This document shows, in pieces, positions 26,135-64,000 of a stretch of 64,000 bases of DNA (position 1 is its first letter; the number at the start of each line of letters is the position of its first letter). Where the stretch lies: contig CAWEMT010000003.1 in NCBI GenBank assembly GCA_963810255.1, forward strand, positions 784,958 to 848,957, read 5' to 3'. This stretch comes from an uncultured Alphaproteobacteria bacterium (lineage in GTDB: Bacteria > Pseudomonadota > Alphaproteobacteria > Rhizobiales > Xanthobacteraceae). The translations under genes and the position numbers were made by a program. The notes beneath the pieces are model-generated. The model did no database searches. It was not told the DNA's origin and worked only from the letters and a program-made list of their open reading frames with translations.

Positions 26135-26175
26135 GAACACATATCGAACAGATAGTGTTCGTTCATGATTTGTTT
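26135..26175 (+). promoter_or_regulatory. LexA operator (alphaproteobacterial SOS boxes) upstream of lexA
   Basis: GAAC(26135)-N7-GAAC(26146)-N7-GTTC(26157), then GTTC(26161)-N7-GTTT(26172). This matches the GTTC-N7-GTTC / GAAC-N7-GAAC direct-repeat LexA box known in alphaproteobacteria. It lies 46-86 nt upstream of the lexA ATG. Confidence 0.8.
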
Positions 26176-41617: not shown

Positions 41618-42769
41618 TCATGAGGTCGCGAGGTGGAGGATGTCATTAAAGGTTGCAAAAATCATCAACATCACAACGATCGCCAGCCCAATTCGGAAAC
41701 CAACCTCCTGCGCGCGCTCGGACAATGGCCGGCCGCGTACCGCTTCGATCGCATAGAACAAAAGGTGACCTCCATCGAGCAGAGGAATCGGGAACAAGTT
41801 CAGAAGCCCGATAGACACCGACAGCACTGCGGTCAGATGGATGAGTGCGACAAAACCCGCCGTCGCCACCTCGCCGGAAACCTGCGCGATGCGGATAGGA
41901 CCGCCGAGCTGATCGGCCGCTTCACGGCCCGTAAAGACGCCGCCGATGTATGACAACGTGCGGTCGACGACAAACCAAGTCTCCTGCGCCCCGGCGATAA
42001 TCGCCGTAATCGGCCCCATTTTCTCCGTCTTGATATCGCTAGGCGCCATCGAGCGGCTGATGCCTAGCACCCCAAGCCGGTGCACGTTGCCAAAGCGATC
42101 CTTGATCTCCTTGAGCTGCGGCGTCGCCTTCAGCGACACAGGCACGCCGCCGCGCTCGACCGAGATCGTCAGCGGCTCGCCGGAACTGATGCTGACGATC
42201 CGCTGCATGTCGGCAAAATTTTCAATCTTTTGACCGTTGATCGACTGCACGACATCGCCCGGCTTGAAGCCTGCAGTTGCCGCCGCGCTTTGCGGTTGCA
42301 CGGTGTCGACCCGCGCGCTCGTCGTCTGCTTGCCGACAATCATGAAAATGCCGGCAAATATGAGGATCGCGAGGATGAAATTGGCGATCGGGCCGGCAGC
42401 CACGACGGCGGAGCGTGCACCCGCCGGCTGGAACATGAAGCTGTCTTTTTTGTCGTCTTCGGACATCGTAGCGGCGGCGGCTTGATCGGGCACGCTCGCG
42501 GCATTGTCGTCACCGAAGAATTTCACATAGCCGCCGAGTGGTACGGCGGCTATTTTCCAGCGCGTGCCGTAGCGGTCGTAGAATCCGACGATTTCGGGCC
42601 CGAAGCCGATCGAGAAGGCCAACACCTTGATGCCGCACCAGCGAGCCACAAGAAAATGGCCAAGCTCGTGGAAAAAAACGACGATGGTCAGTACGAACAG
42701 AAACGGAACGATATAGCCGACTAGGCCTCCGCCGAAGGCGCTTAACCCCGCCATAAAGTCAAAATGCAT
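41618..42769 (-). CDS. rseP: RIP zinc metalloprotease RseP
   Basis: 383 aa with HELGHFLVAR (HExxH), a PDZ region and the LDGG motif. Confidence 0.9.
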   Translation of the reverse strand: MHFDFMAGLSAFGGGLVGYIVPFLFVLTIVVFFHELGHFLVARWCGIKVLAFSIGFGPEIVGFYDRYGTRWKIAAVPLGGYVKFFGDDNAASVPDQAAAATMSEDDKKDSFMFQPAGARSAVVAAGPIANFILAILIFAGIFMIVGKQTTSARVDTVQPQSAAATAGFKPGDVVQSINGQKIENFADMQRIVSISSGEPLTISVERGGVPVSLKATPQLKEIKDRFGNVHRLGVLGISRSMAPSDIKTEKMGPITAIIAGAQETWFVVDRTLSYIGGVFTGREAADQLGGPIRIAQVSGEVATAGFVALIHLTAVLSVSIGLLNLFPIPLLDGGHLLFYAIEAVRGRPLSERAQEVGFRIGLAIVVMLMIFATFNDILHLATS

Positions 42770-49409: not shown

Positions 49410-52400
49410 CTAAAGCGCCTCGACCTGCACCACGCCCGGCACCGCTTTGATGGCGCCGGCCACCTGCGGGGAGACCTTGAAGCGGCCGGGCAGCTTGACT
49501 TCCACCTCGGTACCGCGCGGAAGCATCAACACCACGCTTACCTCGCCGTCGCCGTTGGCCGCCGCGGACCGTGCGATCGGCTCCAGCCGCTTGGCCAGCC
49601 CCTCAATCGGCTTGTCGTCGCGCAAGAAGACGCGCAAGCCCTGCTGCAGATTGGCGGCGGCGGCATCGAGCGGTTCGACCGATTGGATGCGGGCGCGCAC
49701 GTCGTCGCCCTGCACCTCTGCCGACAGGAACAGTAGCACCGCGGTGCCCGGCTCGAGCAGGTCGCGATGCTCGGCCAGCCCTTCCGAGAAGATCACCGCC
49801 TCGTAATGTCCGGTGGCATCGGAAAGCCCGATGATGCCCATCTTGCTGCCCGTTCGCGTGCGCCGCTCTTGCCGCGACACGACAGTGCCGGCGACGCGGC
49901 CGGCGGTCGCGCCATTTTTGACCGCGCGCGCGAATTCGGCCCAGGGCTGTACCCGCAGCTTCTTGAGCACGGCGGCATAGTCGTCGAGCGGGTGGCCCGA
50001 CAGGAAGAAGCCGACAGCCTCGTATTCACGCCGCAGCCGCTCGGCCGGCAGCCAGGGTTCGGCATTCGGCAATGCAATGGCTTCGCGCGCGCCGATGCCG
50101 CCGAACAATTCATTCTGCCCGACGGAAGCGGTCTCATGCGCGTGCTGGGCGCGGGCCAACACCTGATCTACGGTCATGAACACGCGGGCCCGGTTGGCCT
50201 CGAAGGCATCGAAGGCGCCGGCCGCACTGAGGCTTTCCAGCACGCGCTTGTTGATGGCGCGCGGATTGATGCGCGCGGCAAAGTCGGCGAGATCGGCGAA
50301 GGGGCGCTCTCCCCGCGCCGCGATGATCGCTTCGACCGCCTGCCTGCCGACGCCTTTGAGCGCGGCCAGCGCGTAGATGATGGTGTCGCCGTCGACCTCG
50401 AAAGCGAGGCTTGAACGATTGATCGACGGTGGATCGACTTTGAGCCCAAGCCGCTCGGCCTCAGCGCGAAACTCGGCCAGTTTGTCGGTATTGCCCATGT
50501 CCAGCGTCATCGACGCGGCCATGAACTCGACCGGATAATTCGCCTTCATATAGGCGGTCTGATAGGCGACCAAAGCATAAGCAGCCGCATGGCTCTTGTT
50601 GAAGCCGTATTCGGCGAAGCGCTCGAGCAGATCGAAGATGGCATCGGCTTGCGAGCGCTCGACGCCGCGCTCGACCGCGCCTTCGACGAAGCGCTTGCGC
50701 TGCGCCTGCATCTCCTTCCTGATCTTTTTGCCCATGGCACGGCGCAACAGGTCGGCATCGCCGAGCGAGAAGCCGGCGAGGATCTGCGCGGCCTGCATCA
50801 CCTGTTCCTGGTAGATGATGACGCCGAAGGTCTCCTTCAGGATCGGCTCCAGCTTGGGATGGATGTAGTCGGGCTTCTCCATCTCGTGCTTGCGCGCGCA
50901 ATAAGTCGGAATATTCGCCATCGGACCGGGGCGGTAGAGCGCGACCAGCGCGATGATGTCCTCGAAGCGGTCGGGCCGCATGTCGAGCAGCGCGCGCCGC
51001 ATGCCGGCACTTTCCAGTTGGAACACTCCGACCGCTTCGGCCCGGGCTAGAAGGTCGTAAGTGGCCTTATCGTCGAGCGGGATGTTGGTGAGGTCGATGT
51101 CGATGCCGCGCCGCTTCACCAACGCGACCGCGGTTTGCAGCACCGTCAGCGTCTTGAGGCCGAGGAAATCGAATTTGACGAGGCCGGCCTGCTCCACCCA
51201 TTTCATGTTGAACTGGGTGACCGGCATGTCGGATTTCGGATCGCGATAGAGCGGCACCAACTCGGTAAGCGCGCGGTCGCCAATGACGATGCCGGCGGCG
51301 TGGGTGGAGGCGTGGCGGGTGAGGCCTTCCAGCTTCCTGGCGATGGCGAAGGCGCGTTTCACGACCGGATCGCTTTCGGCTTCCGCCTGCAGCTTCGGTT
51401 CATCTTCGATGGCGCGCGCCAGCGTCACCGGCGCCGCCGGATTCTGCGGCACCATTTTGCAGAGCTTGTCCACTTGCCCATAGGGCATTTGCAGCACGCG
51501 GCCGACATCGCGCAGCACGCCGCGCGCCTGCAGCGTGCCGAAGGTGATGATCTGCGCCACCTGATCGCGGCCGTAACGCTCCTGCACGTAGCGGATCACT
51601 TCCTCGCGGCGGTCCTGGCAGAAATCGATGTCGAAATCCGGCATCGACACGCGCTCGGGATTGAGGAAGCGCTCGAACAGCAGGCCGAAGCGGATCGGAT
51701 CGAGGTCGGTGATGGTGAGCGCGTAGGAGACGAGCGAACCGGCGCCGGAGCCGCGGCCGGGCCCGACCGGAATGCCGTGGTTCTTCGCCCATTGGATGAA
51801 GTCGGCGACGATCAGAAAATAACCGGGATATTTCATGCCGGCGATGACGCCCAATTCGAAGTCGAGTCGCTCGCGGTATTCGTCGGCGGTATGGCCGGGC
51901 GCCGCCCCGGCGCTCGCCAGGCGGCGCATCAGCCCGGCTTCGGCGCGTTTGCGCAGCTCAGTCGCCTCATCGACCGTGCTGCCGCCCTCGCCCGTTGAAA
52001 AGCGCGGCAGGATCGGATCGTGGGTGCGCGGGCGGAAGGCGCAGCGCTCGGCGATTTCCACGGTCGACGCGAGCGCTTCGGGCAGATCGGCAAACAGCTC
52101 GACCATTTCGGCGCGGGTCTTGAAACGATGCTCGGCGGTGAGATGCCGCCTGTCGGGCTCAGCCAGCAAGCGACCTTCGGCGATGCAGACAAGCGCGTCA
52201 TGCGCCTCATAGTCGGCGGCGGTCGCGAAAAATGGTTCGTTGGTCGCGACCAAGGGCAGCGATTGGCTATAAGCAAGATCGATCAGCACCGGCTCGGTCA
52301 TGCGTTCATTGGCGGTGCCGTGGCGCTGCAATTCGATATAGAGGCGGTCGCCAAACAGACGTGCCAGCGCCGCAAGGCGCGTCACGGCGAGATGGCTTTG

Positions 52401-52886
52401 GCCTGCCGCGATGGCGACGTCGAGCGGTCCGCCGGGGCCGCCGGTCAGCGCGATGATCCCATCGGTCTGCCCCTCGAGCCAATCGATCTTGAGGCGCGGC
52501 GGTTCGTTCGCCGGCGAATTGAGGAACGCGCGCGAATTGAGCCGCATCAGGCTGCGATAGCCTTCGTCGCGCGCGGCCAAGAGCACGATGCGCGAGCGTT
52601 CGGCCGTGGCGTGGCCGTTGCGGGCGCCGTGATCGGTATCGCCGAAATCGATCGCCAGCGCGCAGCCGATAATCGGCTGGATGCCGGCGCCCGAGAGCTT
52701 TTCGGAGAATTCCAGCACACCGAACATGTTGTCGGTGTCGGTGAGCGCGAGCCCTGCTTGCTTGTCGGCCTTGGCGAGCTCGGCGAGGCGCGCGATCGTG
52801 ATCGCGCCCTCCAACAACGAATAGTTCGAGTGCACATGCAAGTGCACGAAGTCGAGATCGGCCACGGCTGATTCCTTGGTCTGCAC
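49410..52886 (-). CDS. dnaE: DNA polymerase III alpha subunit (replicative DnaE1)
   Basis: 1158 aa. The PHP N-terminus FVHLHVHSNYSLLEGA and overall sequence mark DnaE1 rather than DnaE2. The start is GTG at 52886 or GTG at 52865. Confidence 0.93.
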   Translation of the reverse strand: MQTKESAVADLDFVHLHVHSNYSLLEGAITIARLAELAKADKQAGLALTDTDNMFGVLEFSEKLSGAGIQPIIGCALAIDFGDTDHGARNGHATAERSRIVLLAARDEGYRSLMRLNSRAFLNSPANEPPRLKIDWLEGQTDGIIALTGGPGGPLDVAIAAGQSHLAVTRLAALARLFGDRLYIELQRHGTANERMTEPVLIDLAYSQSLPLVATNEPFFATAADYEAHDALVCIAEGRLLAEPDRRHLTAEHRFKTRAEMVELFADLPEALASTVEIAERCAFRPRTHDPILPRFSTGEGGSTVDEATELRKRAEAGLMRRLASAGAAPGHTADEYRERLDFELGVIAGMKYPGYFLIVADFIQWAKNHGIPVGPGRGSGAGSLVSYALTITDLDPIRFGLLFERFLNPERVSMPDFDIDFCQDRREEVIRYVQERYGRDQVAQIITFGTLQARGVLRDVGRVLQMPYGQVDKLCKMVPQNPAAPVTLARAIEDEPKLQAEAESDPVVKRAFAIARKLEGLTRHASTHAAGIVIGDRALTELVPLYRDPKSDMPVTQFNMKWVEQAGLVKFDFLGLKTLTVLQTAVALVKRRGIDIDLTNIPLDDKATYDLLARAEAVGVFQLESAGMRRALLDMRPDRFEDIIALVALYRPGPMANIPTYCARKHEMEKPDYIHPKLEPILKETFGVIIYQEQVMQAAQILAGFSLGDADLLRRAMGKKIRKEMQAQRKRFVEGAVERGVERSQADAIFDLLERFAEYGFNKSHAAAYALVAYQTAYMKANYPVEFMAASMTLDMGNTDKLAEFRAEAERLGLKVDPPSINRSSLAFEVDGDTIIYALAALKGVGRQAVEAIIAARGERPFADLADFAARINPRAINKRVLESLSAAGAFDAFEANRARVFMTVDQVLARAQHAHETASVGQNELFGGIGAREAIALPNAEPWLPAERLRREYEAVGFFLSGHPLDDYAAVLKKLRVQPWAEFARAVKNGATAGRVAGTVVSRQERRTRTGSKMGIIGLSDATGHYEAVIFSEGLAEHRDLLEPGTAVLLFLSAEVQGDDVRARIQSVEPLDAAAANLQQGLRVFLRDDKPIEGLAKRLEPIARSAAANGDGEVSVVLMLPRGTEVEVKLPGRFKVSPQVAGAIKAVPGVVQVEAL

Positions 52887-53039
52887 GCAGACTGCGGACA
52901 GTCAGCGGCCAAGTCCACCGTCTATGGGACGCCGCCGCGGACTATGCCCGCTTTTCGCAAGGCGCCATTCCGCGCAGCGTCCGGCCGGTTGGGGAACGGC
53001 CAAGACGAAGCGCGGATACGCGGGGCAGGCGGGGACGGC

Positions 53040-53138
53040 TTATAGATTTCCCAGCACCTGCGACCAGATGGCGATCATGCCGATGAACAGCGACAGGGAC
53101 GCGAGCGCGGCGGCTTCTTGAACGAGGGCTTTGACCAT
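53040..53138 (-). CDS. 32-aa hydrophobic peptide, putative SOS-regulated small membrane protein
   Basis: Below the ORF-track size cut-off. atg gtc aaa gcc ... cta taa translates to MVKALVQEAAALASLSLFIGMIAIWSQVLGNL. It has strongly GC3-biased codons like the genuine genes here, an SD gggagag 6 nt upstream of the ATG, and a promoter with LexA boxes directly upstream. Confidence 0.55.
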   Translation of the reverse strand: MVKALVQEAAALASLSLFIGMIAIWSQVLGNL

Positions 53139-53139
53139 T

Positions 53140-53193
53140 GTTCTCTCCCGGAACGGAGAGAGAACATAGTTCATGGTATGTTCTAGTGTCAAG
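53140..53193 (-). promoter_or_regulatory. LexA-box cluster and sigma70-type promoter for the 32-aa ORF
   Basis: On the minus strand: -35 CTTGAC (53193-53188), an 18-nt spacer containing GAAC-ATACCAT-GAAC (53183-53169), and -10 CTATGT (53169-53164). Then GTTC-N7-GTTC (53165-53151) and GAAC (53143-40) abutting the ATG. The tetramers are phased 11 bp apart, as at lexA. Confidence 0.65.
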
Positions 53194-53367
53194 CGACGGT
53201 GGTGGGTGAGTTTAAGCTATTGCTTTGCCTTGATCTTTGCCAAATGACGCCCTGTTGCGATGCCACAAGTCTCTAGGACCTGGGCCGGGAGTCGGACTTA
53301 ATGGGCCAAGCGGTGGCCTTGGTCTGTCGTTGCCCCGTCCCGTCACACAGACCGTTGCGAGGCCCCG

Positions 53368-53598
53368 ATGTCCGTCTTTGGCGAGTTGTACGGCTATATC
53401 AGCGAGCGCAAGCGCTACTGGCTGCTTCCGGTGTTGATTCCGGTCTTGGTGGTCCACGGGCTGATCGTCGCGTCCGAGGGCGTCATCCAAGCTCTGCAAA
53501 GTCTTCAATCGGTGGCGTCGGCGCTATCGCCCAAATTCGCCAGCGGCTTTGCCGCGGCCTGGGCACGCCCGCACCTGCGGCATTCTCGTCGCGCTTAA
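53368..53598 (+). CDS. small membrane protein with a DUF5989-like N-terminus and divergent C-terminus
   Basis: 76 aa. MSVFGELYGYISERKRYWLLPVLIPVLVVHGLIV resembles the DUF5989 small-protein family, which is usually about 50 aa. The C-terminal half does not. Assignment made from memory of the family. Confidence 0.35.
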   Translation: MSVFGELYGYISERKRYWLLPVLIPVLVVHGLIVASEGVIQALQSLQSVASALSPKFASGFAAAWARPHLRHSRRA

Positions 53599-53636
53599 GG
53601 TGCCTTAACCGGCAGGCTTCGACAACTTCGGCCTGC

Positions 53637-54368
53637 TCACTCCAGCTCCACCACCCGCCCATCCTTCAACGTCACCCGCCGGTCCATGCGACCGGCGAGT
53701 TCCATGTTGTGGGTGGCGATGATGGTGGCAAGGCGGGAGGCGCGCACCAGTTGGGTCAGAGCCGCGAACACGTGGTCGGCGGTGTGCACGTCGAGGTTCC
53801 CGGTCGGCTCGTCCGCCAACAGAATCCTGGGCGCATTGGCGACCGCGCGGGCGATGGCCACCCGCTGCTGTTCGCCGCCGGACAGCTCCGCCGGCCGGTG
53901 GGTCAGGCGCTCCCCTAAGCCGAGATAGCTGAGCAATTCGATCGCGCGCTTGTTCGCCTCGCGGCGCGACAGGCCGCGGATCATCTGCGGCAGCAGCACG
54001 TTCTCGAGCGCGGTGAATTCCGGCAGCAAATGATGCGACTGATAGATGAAGCCGATCTCGTTGCGGCGAATGCGGGTGCGCTCATGATCGGGCAACGCGG
54101 CGGTCGCGCGGCCGTCGATATAGACCTCGCCGTGATCGGGATGTTCGAGCAGGCCGGCGATGTGCAGCAGCGTCGATTTGCCGGCTCCCGAGGGCGCCAC
54201 CAGCGCCACCGACTGGCCGGGCCAGACCGCCAACTCCACGCTTGTCAGCACGTTGAGCGTCGCGTCGCCCTGCCGGTAATGGCGTTCGACCCCGTGCAGG
54301 AACAGGATGGGGGCCTCCTGCTCTTCCTGCGTAGCCTCGACGCGCGTCTCGACCATGGTCTCACTCAT
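53637..54368 (-). CDS. lolD: lipoprotein-releasing ABC transporter ATP-binding protein LolD
   Basis: Walker A (APSGAGKST), signature ([14 protein letters not shown]) and Walker B ([11 protein letters not shown]) are present. The start at 54368 overlaps the lolC stop by 8 nt. Confidence 0.88.
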
Positions 54369-55629
54369 AACGCAGCGCCTCCACCGGATCGAGGCGGGCC
54401 GCGCGCCAGGACGGATAGAGCGTGGCAAGCAACGAAAGCGCCAGCGCCATGACTACCACGGCGGTGGTCTCCGCACTGTCCATATCGGCGGGCAGGTGCG
54501 AGAGGAAATAAAGCTCGGGCGAGAACAATTCGGTATGGGTGAGCCAGGACAGGAACTGGCGGATGTTCTCGATGTTGAGACAGACCACCACGCCAAGCAA
54601 GAAACCGACGATCGTTCCGATTACGCCGATCGAAGCGCCGGTGATCAGGAAAACGCGCATGATGGCGCCTTGCGTCGCGCCCATGGTGCGCAGGATAGCG
54701 ATATCTTGCCCCTTGTCCTTCACCAGCATGATCAGCCCGGACACGATGTTGAGGGCTGCCACCAGCACGATCAGCGTCAGGATCAGGAACATCACGTTGC
54801 GCTCGACCTGCAGCGCGTTGAAGAAGGTGGCGTTGCGCTGACGCCAGTCGATCATGAAGATCGACCGTTGCGCAGCGTCCTGGATAGCCTTGCGGTAACT
54901 GTCGACGCGGTCGGGATTGTCGGTATAGACCTCGATGGCGGTGACGTCGCCAGCGCGGTTGAAATAGGCCTGCGCTTCCTTCAGCGGCATGAAGACGAAG
55001 GCGGAATCGTACTCCGACATGCCGATCTCGAACACCGCCGCCACCTTGTAGACCTTGATGCGCGGCATGGTGCCCATCGGCGTGACCGCACCGCGCGGCG
55101 CCACCAGCGTGATGTTGTCGCCGGAACGCAGCGACAGCTGGTCGGCGAGCCGGCGCCCGATCGCCACCCCCTGCCCCTGGTCGAAGCCGTTGAGCGTGCC
55201 TTGCTTGATGTTCTTGGCGACCGAGGGAAGCTTCTCGAGATCGGCGAGACGAATGCCGCGGATCAGCACGCCGCCGGAATTAAACGGCGAGGACGCCAAA
55301 GCCTGGCCTTCGACAATCGGCGCGGCGAGGCGAATGCCGGGCACCTTGGCGATGCGGGCGGCGACCTCCTGCCAATCGGTCAGAGGCTTCTCCAACGGCT
55401 GGATCAAGAGATGGCCGTTGAGACCGAGGATCTTGTCGAGCAGCTCCTTGCGAAAGCCGTTCATCACCGCCATCACGATGATCAAGGTGGCGACGCCGAG
55501 CATGATGCCGAGGAAGGAGAACCCGGCGATGACCGAGATGAATCCTTCCTTGCGCCGTGCCCGCAAGTAGCGCAGCGACAGCATCCACTCGAACGGAGAG
55601 AAGGGCCGCGTCCCTGTAGGCTCGCTCAT
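54361..55629 (-). CDS. lolC: lipoprotein-releasing ABC transporter permease LolC/LolE
   Basis: 422 aa. It has MacB-like/FtsX-family topology and is paired with lolD. Confidence 0.85.
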
Positions 55630-62476: not shown

Positions 62477-64000
62477 CGCGTGGCGCTCGTCGGAATTATC
62501 TGCGCCTGTTCCAGTTTGATTGAAATCGAGCCTGTCTTGACGGCCTCCGCCGCTTTGGCGGCCGCGACTCCGCGGTCGTATTTGTCGAGAAGCTGAGCGA
62601 CCGAGGCCGCCGACATATCGAGCACCGGCTTGGGCGCAAAGCCGAAGAGGATGGTGAGAACGACCAGCGGCGCGAAGATCAACAATTCACGCCAGCCGAT
62701 GTCCTTGATGCCTTCAAGCGCCGGCTTCAAATTGCCGAGGATCATTTTGCGGTAGAGCCACAGTGCGTAACACGCCGACAAGATGACGCCGATCGTCGCC
62801 AGGAACGCCACCCCGGTGTTGACCTTGAAGGTGCCGATCAACGACAGGAACTCGCCTACGAAGCCGGAGGTGCCGGGCAGCCCGACATTGGCCAACGTAA
62901 ACACCATGAACACCGCGGCATAAAGCGGCATGCGATTGACCAGCCCGCCATAGAAGGCGATCTCGCGGGTGTGCATGCGGTCGTAAACCACGCCGACGCA
63001 GAGGAACAGCGCGCCGGAGACGATGCCGTGCGAGATCATCTGAAAGATGCCGCCGGCCACGCCTTGAGTGGTCGCCGCAAAAATCCCCATGGTGACGAAA
63101 CCCATGTGCGCGACTGAGGAATAGGCAATCAGCTTCTTCACGTCTTCCTGCATCAGCGCCACCAGCGAGGTGTAGATGATGGCGACAACGGAGAGCGTGA
63201 AAATCAGCGGCGCGAAGTCATGGCTAGCGGCCGGGAACATCGGCAGTGAAAACCGCAAAAAGCCGTAGCCACCCATCTTCAACAAAATGGCGGCAAGGAT
63301 AACCGAGCCCGCGGTCGGCGCTTCGACATGCGCGTCCGGCAACCACGTGTGCACCGGCCACATCGGCATTTTGACCGCAAACGAAGCAAAGAACGCGAGC
63401 CAGGCCCATTTCTGCAAGCCGAGCGGAAAGCCGTGGCGTAGCAGCACCACGATATCGGTGGTGCCGGCCTCCCAGTACATCGCCATGATGGCGAGCAGCA
63501 TCAGGACGGAACCGGCGAGCGTATAGAGGAAAAACTTGAAGCTGGCGTAGACCCGGCGCTTGCCGCCCCATACGCCGATGATCAGGAACATCGGGATCAG
63601 GCCGCCTTCGAAGAACAGATAGAACAGAACCAGATCGAGTGCGGAAAAGGTGCCGATCATCAGCGTTTCCAGGATCAGAAACGCGATCATGTATTCCTTC
63701 ACGCGCTTCTGGATCGCGGTCCAGCTCGCCAGGATACAAAGCGGCATCAAGCCGGTGGTGAGGATCACAAAAGGCAGCGAAATGCCGTCGACGCCCATGT
63801 GATAATCGGCAACGCCCAACCAGGGATATTTCTCGACGAACTGGAATTCCGGCGAACTCGGATCGAACCGGCCCACCATCACCAGCGAAATCGCAAACGT
63901 CACCAGCGTCGTCCACAGCGCGACCCAGCGCGCGGTGCCGCTCGCGATGCGGTCACTGCCGCGCACCGCCATGATGAACAGCGCGCCCACCAGCGGCAGG
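62473..64000 (-). CDS. nuoM: NADH-quinone oxidoreductase subunit M, 5' end beyond the window
   Basis: The reading frame stays open to the window end (...[12 protein letters not shown]...). The track start at 63990 is only an internal GTG. Confidence 0.9.

Follow-up and report, generated by a model that had tools for sequence, protein, structure and literature searches.

The subject of this report is a small gene in a 64,000-nucleotide (nt) stretch of contig CAWEMT010000003.1, from the assembly of an uncultured Xanthobacteraceae bacterium (GCA_963810255.1); this whole stretch is called the window below. The gene is a minus-strand open reading frame (ORF) of 32 codons, preceded by a promoter that carries two GTTC-N7-GTTC boxes of the kind recognised by LexA, and followed by dnaE, which encodes the replicative DNA polymerase III (Pol III) alpha subunit (Table 1). 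An earlier sequence-only reading of the window had proposed that an SOS-induced membrane peptide is encoded at this site. Here we describe the ORF, its operator and the spacer that leads into dnaE, and compare the arrangement with the sidA-dnaE unit of Caulobacter.

The small reading frame and its LexA operator

Relatives of the locus were collected by scanning one-per-species genomes for the N-terminus of DnaE, which gave 80 loci, mostly from Pseudolabrys and related Hyphomicrobiales, in which this part of DnaE is 55-94% identical to that of the window. Among loci with enough DNA upstream of dnaE, tblastn found the peptide at the same site in every one down to about 67% DnaE identity. A search of this kind (tblastn or profile-based) had been suggested by the sequence-only reading, and peptide and boxes do recur together in the relatives. 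The comparisons below concern the 54 loci of the Pseudolabrys group that have the peptide.

The minus-strand letters from 53200 to 53040 (cTTGACactaGAACataccatGAACtatGTTCtctctccGTTCcGGGAGAGaacaATG) lead into an ORF that runs from the ATG at 53138 to the TAA at 53040, and its translation is identical to the one given earlier. The accompanying claim that nearly all of its codons end in G or C has to be scaled back, the actual figure being 25 of 32 (78%). A length of 32 codons plus stop is kept in all 54 loci, and the pattern that had been named as telling against a gene, boxes retained and the ORF broken in relatives, is not what these loci display. Variation falls mostly at third positions (entropy of 0.63, 0.16 and 1.04 at codon positions 1, 2 and 3), and the pooled ratio of nonsynonymous to synonymous polymorphism (pN/pS) is 0.275 in the frame of the ORF, compared with values of 0.87 and 4.07 for the two alternative frames. 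Judged on these alignments, the 32-codon ORF is a real protein-coding gene under purifying selection. Residues E8, L12, S14, F18, M21 and W25 of the peptide are nearly invariant across the family. AlphaFold2 models residues 2-31 as a single uninterrupted helix, with a predicted local distance difference test (pLDDT) value of 94.7, and the hydrophobic core extends from A9 to L29, a prediction in keeping with the small membrane peptide proposed earlier.

Longer versions of the product were also considered. The in-frame ATG at 53174 lies within the operator and would give a 44-residue form; it was rejected as the true start, as neither its frame nor its spacing is conserved, and the forms of 42-50 residues (MNYVLS..., MFSLRS...) were set aside as read from the LexA operator itself, in a frame that varies among relatives. 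The ATGs of the operator (cATGAAC, tATGTTC) cause gene callers to predict such 42-50 residue forms, which are found as database proteins P0010-P0120. The start of Caulobacter sidA has also been revised, the gene being named among corrected starts, with an earlier coding sequence (CDS) of 123 base pairs (bp) (PMC4117421).

Upstream of the ORF, TTGACA-N18-TATGTT (53192..53163) agrees with the consensus at 10 of 12 positions and is the sole promoter-like site between 52700 and 53500, where 0.1 such sites would be expected. The sequence-only reading had described a promoter of CTTGAC, an 18-nt spacer and a -10 element, boxes of the form GAAC-N7-GAAC and GTTC-N7-GTTC, and a GGGAGAG Shine-Dalgarno sequence; the consensus scan bears out the promoter, both boxes are present as exact matches, and the Shine-Dalgarno sequence is found with its GGAG core 6 nt from the ATG. 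Its five tetramers phased at 11 bp do not survive inspection, as the actual spacing is 11-7-11-11 and the fifth tetramer (GAAC 53143-53140) is not conserved. The likeness that it saw to the layout of the window's lexA operator stands as regards the logic of inverted boxes, since both operators, on the coding strand, have GAAC-N7-GAAC and, after it, a GTTC-N7-GTT(C/T) box in inverted orientation, and both are top-ranked by the weight matrix described below; it fails as regards spacing, the boxes being 3 nt apart here and 11 nt apart at lexA.

The order TTGAC, GAAC-N7-GAAC, TAT, GTTC-N7-GTTC, GGAG, ATG is conserved across the 54 loci. TTGAC is kept in most of them (variants include TTGCG and TTTGAC), at a distance of 8-10 nt ahead of the distal box, CTATGTTC is invariant or nearly so in the aligned loci, and a GGAG or GGAGG core precedes the start codon in aligned relatives. 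The distal box is kept in 53/54 loci, one of which is without the proximal box; the latter, and with it the double box, is kept in 52/54, and the linker between the boxes is TAT in 50 of those 52.

Boxes were scored with a LexA weight matrix derived from 32 boxes of Caulobacter promoters bound in chromatin immunoprecipitation (ChIP), applied to about 128,000 window positions. The distal box scores 19.0 bits and ranks second in the window (training median 19.3), and the proximal box scores 13.3 bits and ranks eighth, slightly under the training minimum of 14.2. The count of bare GTTC-N7-GTTC motifs in the window is not significant (5 compared with 1.9 expected, 6 of 100 shuffles reaching 5); the two boxes described here fall within 33 bp. 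The proximal box extends over both the -10 hexamer and the site where transcription is expected to start. Because the boxes occupy the promoter spacer and the -10/start site, as a repressor requires, LexA control of the gene is well supported by sequence, and the SOS-type regulation proposed earlier is supported by the conservation and matrix ranks of the boxes.

Table 1. Features of the small gene, its promoter and dnaE, together with the lexA operator of the window.
Feature	Position	Strand	Remarks
-35 hexamer TTGACA	53187..53192	-	CTTGAC at 53193-53188; promoter scan
Distal LexA box GAACATACCATGAAC	53169..53183	-	plus strand GTTCATGGTATGTTC; exact GTTC-N7-GTTC, in -35/-10 spacer
-10 hexamer TATGTT	53163..53168	-	TAT linker plus first half-site of proximal box
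Proximal LexA box GTTCTCTCTCCGTTC	53151..53165	-	exact match; inverted relative to distal box
Shine-Dalgarno GGGAGAG	53143..53149	-	read from sequence
sidA-like CDS	53040..53138	-	32 codons plus TAA; product MVKALVQEAAALASLSLFIGMIAIWSQVLGNL; from translation
sidA-like/dnaE spacer	52866..53039	-	GC-rich, structured; predicted folding energy -82.7 kcal/mol
TGGACT-N17-CAGTCT pair	52889..52917	-	candidate dnaE promoter; hexamers and spacing read from window
dnaE (Pol III alpha subunit, replicative)	49410..52865	-	from ORF listing; N-terminus FVHLHVHSNYSLLEGA
lexA operator	26135-26175	+	upstream of lexA ATG ~26221; GAACACATATCGAAC (26135-26149), GTTCATGATTTGTTT (26161-26175)

Family distribution and relationship to Caulobacter SidA

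Pfam and NCBIfam scans of the 32-residue peptide gave no match. A profile search, with an alignment headed by a 50-residue, TTG-extended form of the ORF, returned 4,319 database proteins at E <= 1, all of them 'hypothetical' and with no Pfam domain, and an exhaustive HMMER search gave 501 clusters (50% identity) at E <= 0.001. Outside the Pseudolabrys group, loci of Bauldia, Lichenihabitans and Breoghania, together with Beijerinckiaceae-like loci, have one box and a hydrophobic ORF of 28-38 residues before dnaE; their single box is often GAACAAAACAAGAAC, which is nearly identical to the proximal box of Caulobacter. The double inverted box is also kept in a further branch that we take as Bradyrhizobium-like.

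The system with which these loci invite comparison is that of Caulobacter, where sidA encodes a cell-division inhibitor and interacts genetically with the clamp loader. The replicative dnaE of Caulobacter is CC1926 and sidA is CCNA_02004, and the supplements of a 2025 study place both ccna_02004 (SidA) and ccna_02003 (DNA polymerase III alpha, dnaE) in the SOS regulon (PMC12700426). According to the same study, the sidA promoter has two LexA boxes, GTTCACAAGATGTTC lying 49 bp and TTTCTTGTTTTGTTC 15 bp from the CDS, its LexA ChIP peak is among the highest, and the transcription unit of 3,557 bp comprises sidA and dnaE (PMC12700426). Induction of dnaE there has a log2 fold change of 1.18 after mitomycin C and of 1.45 in a lexA sidA double deletion (PMC12700426).

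Using the two published boxes in the same orientation, 12 Caulobacter-type loci (L081-L092) were recovered from metagenome contigs; a metagenome search with the proximal Caulobacter box inverted, as in the window, returned no loci. Their coding strand reads GAACATCTTGTGAAC-N19-GAACAAAACAAGAAA-N15-ATG, and the ORF of 29 residues that comes next scores 72.5 bits on the NCBIfam model for SidA, NF033228 (cut-off 35). Their dnaE begins 23-36 nt after the SidA ORF, and the divergent gene is a nucleoside hydrolase, as expected for CCNA_02005. Between the published boxes these loci also have a third, degenerate GAAC-N7-GGAA repeat (aGAACaaaaccGGAAt), which makes three repeats of the same orientation.

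LexA boxes, a transmembrane peptide of about 30 residues and dnaE thus follow one another in the same order in Caulobacterales-type loci and in Hyphomicrobiales. The gene described here resembles sidA in encoding a peptide of this size with a single predicted transmembrane helix, in having a sigma-70 promoter with two GTTC-N7-GTTC LexA boxes, and in lying directly upstream of the replicative dnaE in the same orientation, which holds for the window, the 54 relatives, the distant Hyphomicrobiales and L081-L092 alike. The peptides themselves can be aligned. In hhalign the family matches SidA with an E-value of 8.4e-5 and a probability of 60% over 25 gapless columns, the sequences being short and of low complexity, and the conserved E, L, S, F and M stay in register, with E8, L12, S14, F18 and M21 of the window on E7, L11, S13, F17 and M20 of SidA. 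The score of 19.9 compares with 8.1 +/- 2.0 (maximum 15.7) for 300 column shuffles of the SidA alignment (z ~5.8) and with 4.7 for the reversed alignment. Common ancestry with SidA is uncertain on sequence alone; it becomes the most economical explanation because the profile similarity is taken together with the shared locus and regulation. We therefore favour the reading that the gene is the Pseudolabrys-lineage ortholog of Caulobacter sidA within a conserved sidA-dnaE unit, to which we assign a probability of about 0.7. By analogy, the peptide is probably a LexA-repressed division inhibitor.

Several observations weigh against this reading. NF033228, the curated model for SidA, gives no hit with the window peptide and hits only 4 of 118 family members, the best at 13.7 bits (E 0.026) compared with the 35-bit cut-off. 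As NF033228 is a narrow equivalog model, this failure excludes equivalog membership and not homology. Identity to SidA is about 24% and the hhalign probability only 60%, and short hydrophobic helices can converge. The operators are built differently, with inverted boxes 3 nt apart here and boxes of the same orientation 19 nt apart in Caulobacter, and the spacer to dnaE is 174 nt here (113-590 nt in relatives) compared with 23-36 nt. Read-through into dnaE may also be weaker across a spacer that is long, highly structured and, in some relatives, filled with inserts resembling repetitive extragenic palindromic (REP) elements. Finally, 10 Hyphomicrobiales loci that are more distant (L061, L064, L066, L067, L071, L073, L074, L077, L079 and L080, from Methylocapsa, Rhodoblastus, Hyphomicrobiaceae and others) yielded no family member before dnaE in profile searches with hidden Markov models and have at most a stray box there, and the family is either patchy in distribution or diverged past detection. 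Two further differences from Caulobacter are the length of the peptide (32 residues here, 29 in SidA) and the divergent neighbours, which are a DUF5989 ORF and lolD-like genes here and a nucleoside hydrolase there.

Proposed mechanism and alternative explanations

We propose that in the undamaged cell LexA dimers would sit on both boxes, one within the promoter spacer, the other across the -10 hexamer and start, and would shut a near-consensus sigma-70 promoter. On DNA damage, RecA-stimulated cleavage of LexA would free this promoter, and a messenger RNA with a short leader would be translated into a 32-residue peptide with a charged N-terminus (K3, E8) and some 22 hydrophobic residues, predicted to form one transmembrane helix. 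By homology with SidA, the peptide would enter the inner membrane, bind the late divisome proteins FtsW/FtsI/FtsN and block constriction, so that division would be held back until repair is complete. Part of the transcripts would probably pass through the terminator-free spacer into dnaE, and such read-through would modestly raise Pol III alpha during the SOS response, above the level set by dnaE's own promoter-like element. Of these steps, we infer control by LexA, insertion into the membrane, the divisome target and read-through. In essence, the interpretation given by the sequence-only reading is supported. The system is of a known kind, the sidA-dnaE SOS unit, with a known mechanism extended to a new order.

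The logic is shared with other SOS systems. TisB and DinQ of E. coli are LexA-regulated, single-helix inner-membrane peptides of about 27-29 residues, and the peptide predicted here is of similar size, topology and regulation; it has no sequence relationship to them, no antisense small RNA partner or long processed leader was detected for it here, and E. coli has no such link to dnaE. YneA of B. subtilis, SosA of S. aureus, DivS of C. glutamicum and ChiZ of M. tuberculosis are likewise small LexA-repressed membrane proteins, which delay division through late divisome steps and not through FtsZ. They are unrelated in sequence, larger, usually equipped with extracellular domains, and found in another genomic context, with a LexA box of the form CGAAC-N4-GTTCG.

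The sequence-only reading had left the choice between a division inhibitor and a membrane toxin, and it is the former that the SidA locus parallels and the alignment above shuffles favour by analogy. An SOS toxin that worked as TisB or DinQ do would promote dormancy through depolarisation of the inner membrane, with no divisome target; the size class, the single hydrophobic helix and the LexA-box promoter would all suit it. However, an Rfam scan of 52500-53700 gave only a chance snoRNA-like match, with no family match for an antisense partner, and 52700-53500 has no promoter-like site on the opposite strand, which is an indirect test. The predicted leader is about 20 nt, whereas tisB and dinQ have long processed 5' untranslated regions, and sequence, gene order and operator tie the peptide to SidA, which is not a depolarising toxin. 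We consider a toxin improbable, and prefer a division inhibitor because of the sidA-dnaE precedent and of a SidA alignment that exceeds shuffles. A related proposal, that an SOS membrane peptide descended from the sidA locus has changed its target to another envelope or replication-linked partner in the polar-growing Hyphomicrobiales, draws on the low identity to SidA (about 24%), on the loss of SidA W19 and C22, on the family's own invariant W25, on division and growth in Hyphomicrobiales that are unlike those of Caulobacter, and on the genetic interaction between Caulobacter sidA and the clamp loader. Parsimony makes this unlikely, as locus, regulation and size are shared, the E-x3-L-x-S-x3-F-x2-M register is kept, and FtsW, FtsI and FtsN are universal.

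Two other explanations would take the product of the ORF out of the account. In one, the ORF is a cis-acting leader, the translation of which, and not its product, tunes dnaE, for example through an effect on Rho or by melting the structured spacer; linkage to dnaE that is invariant across two orders would fit this, as would a very structured spacer with no terminator. A pure leader would not need the strong conservation of amino-acid sequence that is seen in pN/pS and in the near-invariant residues, however, and the distance to dnaE ranges from 23 to about 590 nt, with spacer sequence that is unconserved apart from the dnaE-proximal blocks; moreover, the phenotype of the Caulobacter homolog is trans-acting. 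We hold a leader function of this type to be improbable. In the other, there is no gene: dnaE would have a conserved leader or promoter region that is non-coding, and the ORF would be incidental to it. Its very short length and the missing Pfam and NCBIfam matches could be cited in favour, but variation with three-base periodicity, a low pN/pS in this frame only, 32 codons in every one of the 54 loci and a conserved Shine-Dalgarno sequence leave almost no room for it, and gene callers have predicted the ORF thousands of times in independent assemblies.

SidA has so far been modelled by the narrow Caulobacter-type equivalog NF033228, and our literature search, with key older papers outside its coverage, found no SOS division inhibitor or SidA relative for Hyphomicrobiales, an order that we take to include Bradyrhizobium-type soil bacteria. 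The new element here is a large unannotated Hyphomicrobiales family that appears to be a diverged SidA ortholog with a distinct inverted double operator. The locus and its more than 4,000 unnamed relatives provide a concrete candidate for an SOS division inhibitor in this order, with a recognisable signature of one or more LexA boxes, a hydrophobic ORF of 28-38 residues and then dnaE. This should be useful for annotation and for the study of SOS-division coupling in soil alphaproteobacteria, and it raises the question of why sidA stayed attached to dnaE. The arrangement appears to have persisted since the split of the two orders, and with this persistence a selected role for SOS read-through to the replicative polymerase becomes testable. 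More tentatively, and at somewhat less than even odds, the LexA-controlled sidA-dnaE unit may be ancestral to Caulobacterales and Hyphomicrobiales, the thousands of 'hypothetical' proteins of 28-38 residues may form a large, unannotated SidA-like family of Alphaproteobacteria, and unbroken linkage to dnaE may reflect a functional coupling between an SOS boost of Pol III alpha and the division block. If true, such coupling could explain the genetic interaction between sidA and the clamp loader in Caulobacter. The advance is incremental, in that a known mechanism is extended and none is new.

The dnaE spacer and other sites in the window

The sequence-only reading had described a gap of about 150 nt with no terminator before dnaE. 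A consensus scan of 52700-53500 indeed found no intrinsic-terminator-like site there; the length needs amendment, as the gap measures 174 nt to the GTG at 52865, or 153 nt if the first in-frame GTG (52886) is taken instead. Among relatives the spacer is 113 to about 590 nt long and its sequence is not conserved except for the dnaE-proximal blocks. Much of the variation in length is explained by palindromic REP-like inserts (gtcatgcccggcc...ggccgggcatgac), which fill the spacer in L054, L038, L025 and L002 and might stabilise the RNA or partly terminate transcription.

Alignment of 41 loci brings out three dnaE-proximal blocks, GGTGGAC, TCCnCACTCTGG and AnGGAATCACCC, each kept by at least 70% of the loci; in the window they correspond to TGGACT-N17-CAGTCT, then AAGGAA, then the GTG at 52865. 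From this arrangement we infer that TGGACT-N17-CAGTCT and AAGGAA would be dnaE's own promoter and ribosome-binding site; dnaE requires LexA-independent expression because it is essential, and SOS read-through of the kind documented in Caulobacter would possibly add to this basal expression. The start of dnaE is likely GTG 52865, with AAGGAA upstream of it, and this codon aligns with ATGGCCG..CTCGA.TTCGTG of the relatives. The mechanical ORF start is GTG 52886, and an ORF from there would overlap the conserved TGGACT-N17-CAGTCT pair. In a related locus (L093) dnaE has PHP, DNA_pol3_alpha, finger and HHH_6 domains. Another block, TTG(C/A)(G/A)AAA-N4-5-GGCATAG, is found in many loci of the Pseudolabrys group, some 85-100 nt ahead of dnaE (window 52943-52960, minus strand, ttgcgaaaagcgggcatag), with a spacing that does not fit a sigma-70 promoter.

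A 9-bp inverted repeat that had been noted over the Shine-Dalgarno sequence (53139-53166) exists. Pairing between the CT-rich LexA-box spacer and the AG-rich Shine-Dalgarno region reaches at least 7 pairs in 36 of 52 loci, with a mean of 7.7 compared with 6.0 in shuffles. A hairpin that would sequester the Shine-Dalgarno sequence was nevertheless rejected, as its register drifts, the closest relative (L062) has mostly lost the pairing, most of its 5' arm precedes the predicted start of transcription, and LexA-box spacers in Caulobacter are pyrimidine-rich in any case. The repeat is likely a by-product.

Elsewhere in the window, the lexA boxes GAACACATATCGAAC and GTTCATGATTTGTTT rank fourth and first by the Caulobacter-derived matrix; the inverted second box reads GTTC-N7-GTTT on the coding strand, and an extra GTTC at 26157 overlaps the operator region. 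The third-ranked site, GTTC-N7-GTTC at 42695-42709 on the minus strand, was rejected as an operator: it encodes VPFLF in the N-terminal part of an rseP-like site-2 protease ORF (...YIVPFLFVLTIVVFFHELGHFLVARW) and is a chance in-gene match. A further exact GTTC-N7-GTTC (GTTCGATCCGAGTTC, 63854-63868, minus strand) near the window end has a low matrix score. The divergent neighbour of the small gene (53368-53598, plus strand) is an ORF of 76 residues, the first 39 of which match DUF5989 (38.5 bits), and further out, at 53637-54428 and 54361-55629, the minus strand has ABC transporter genes resembling lolD/lolE. The genes downstream from dnaE are rpsB and tsf.

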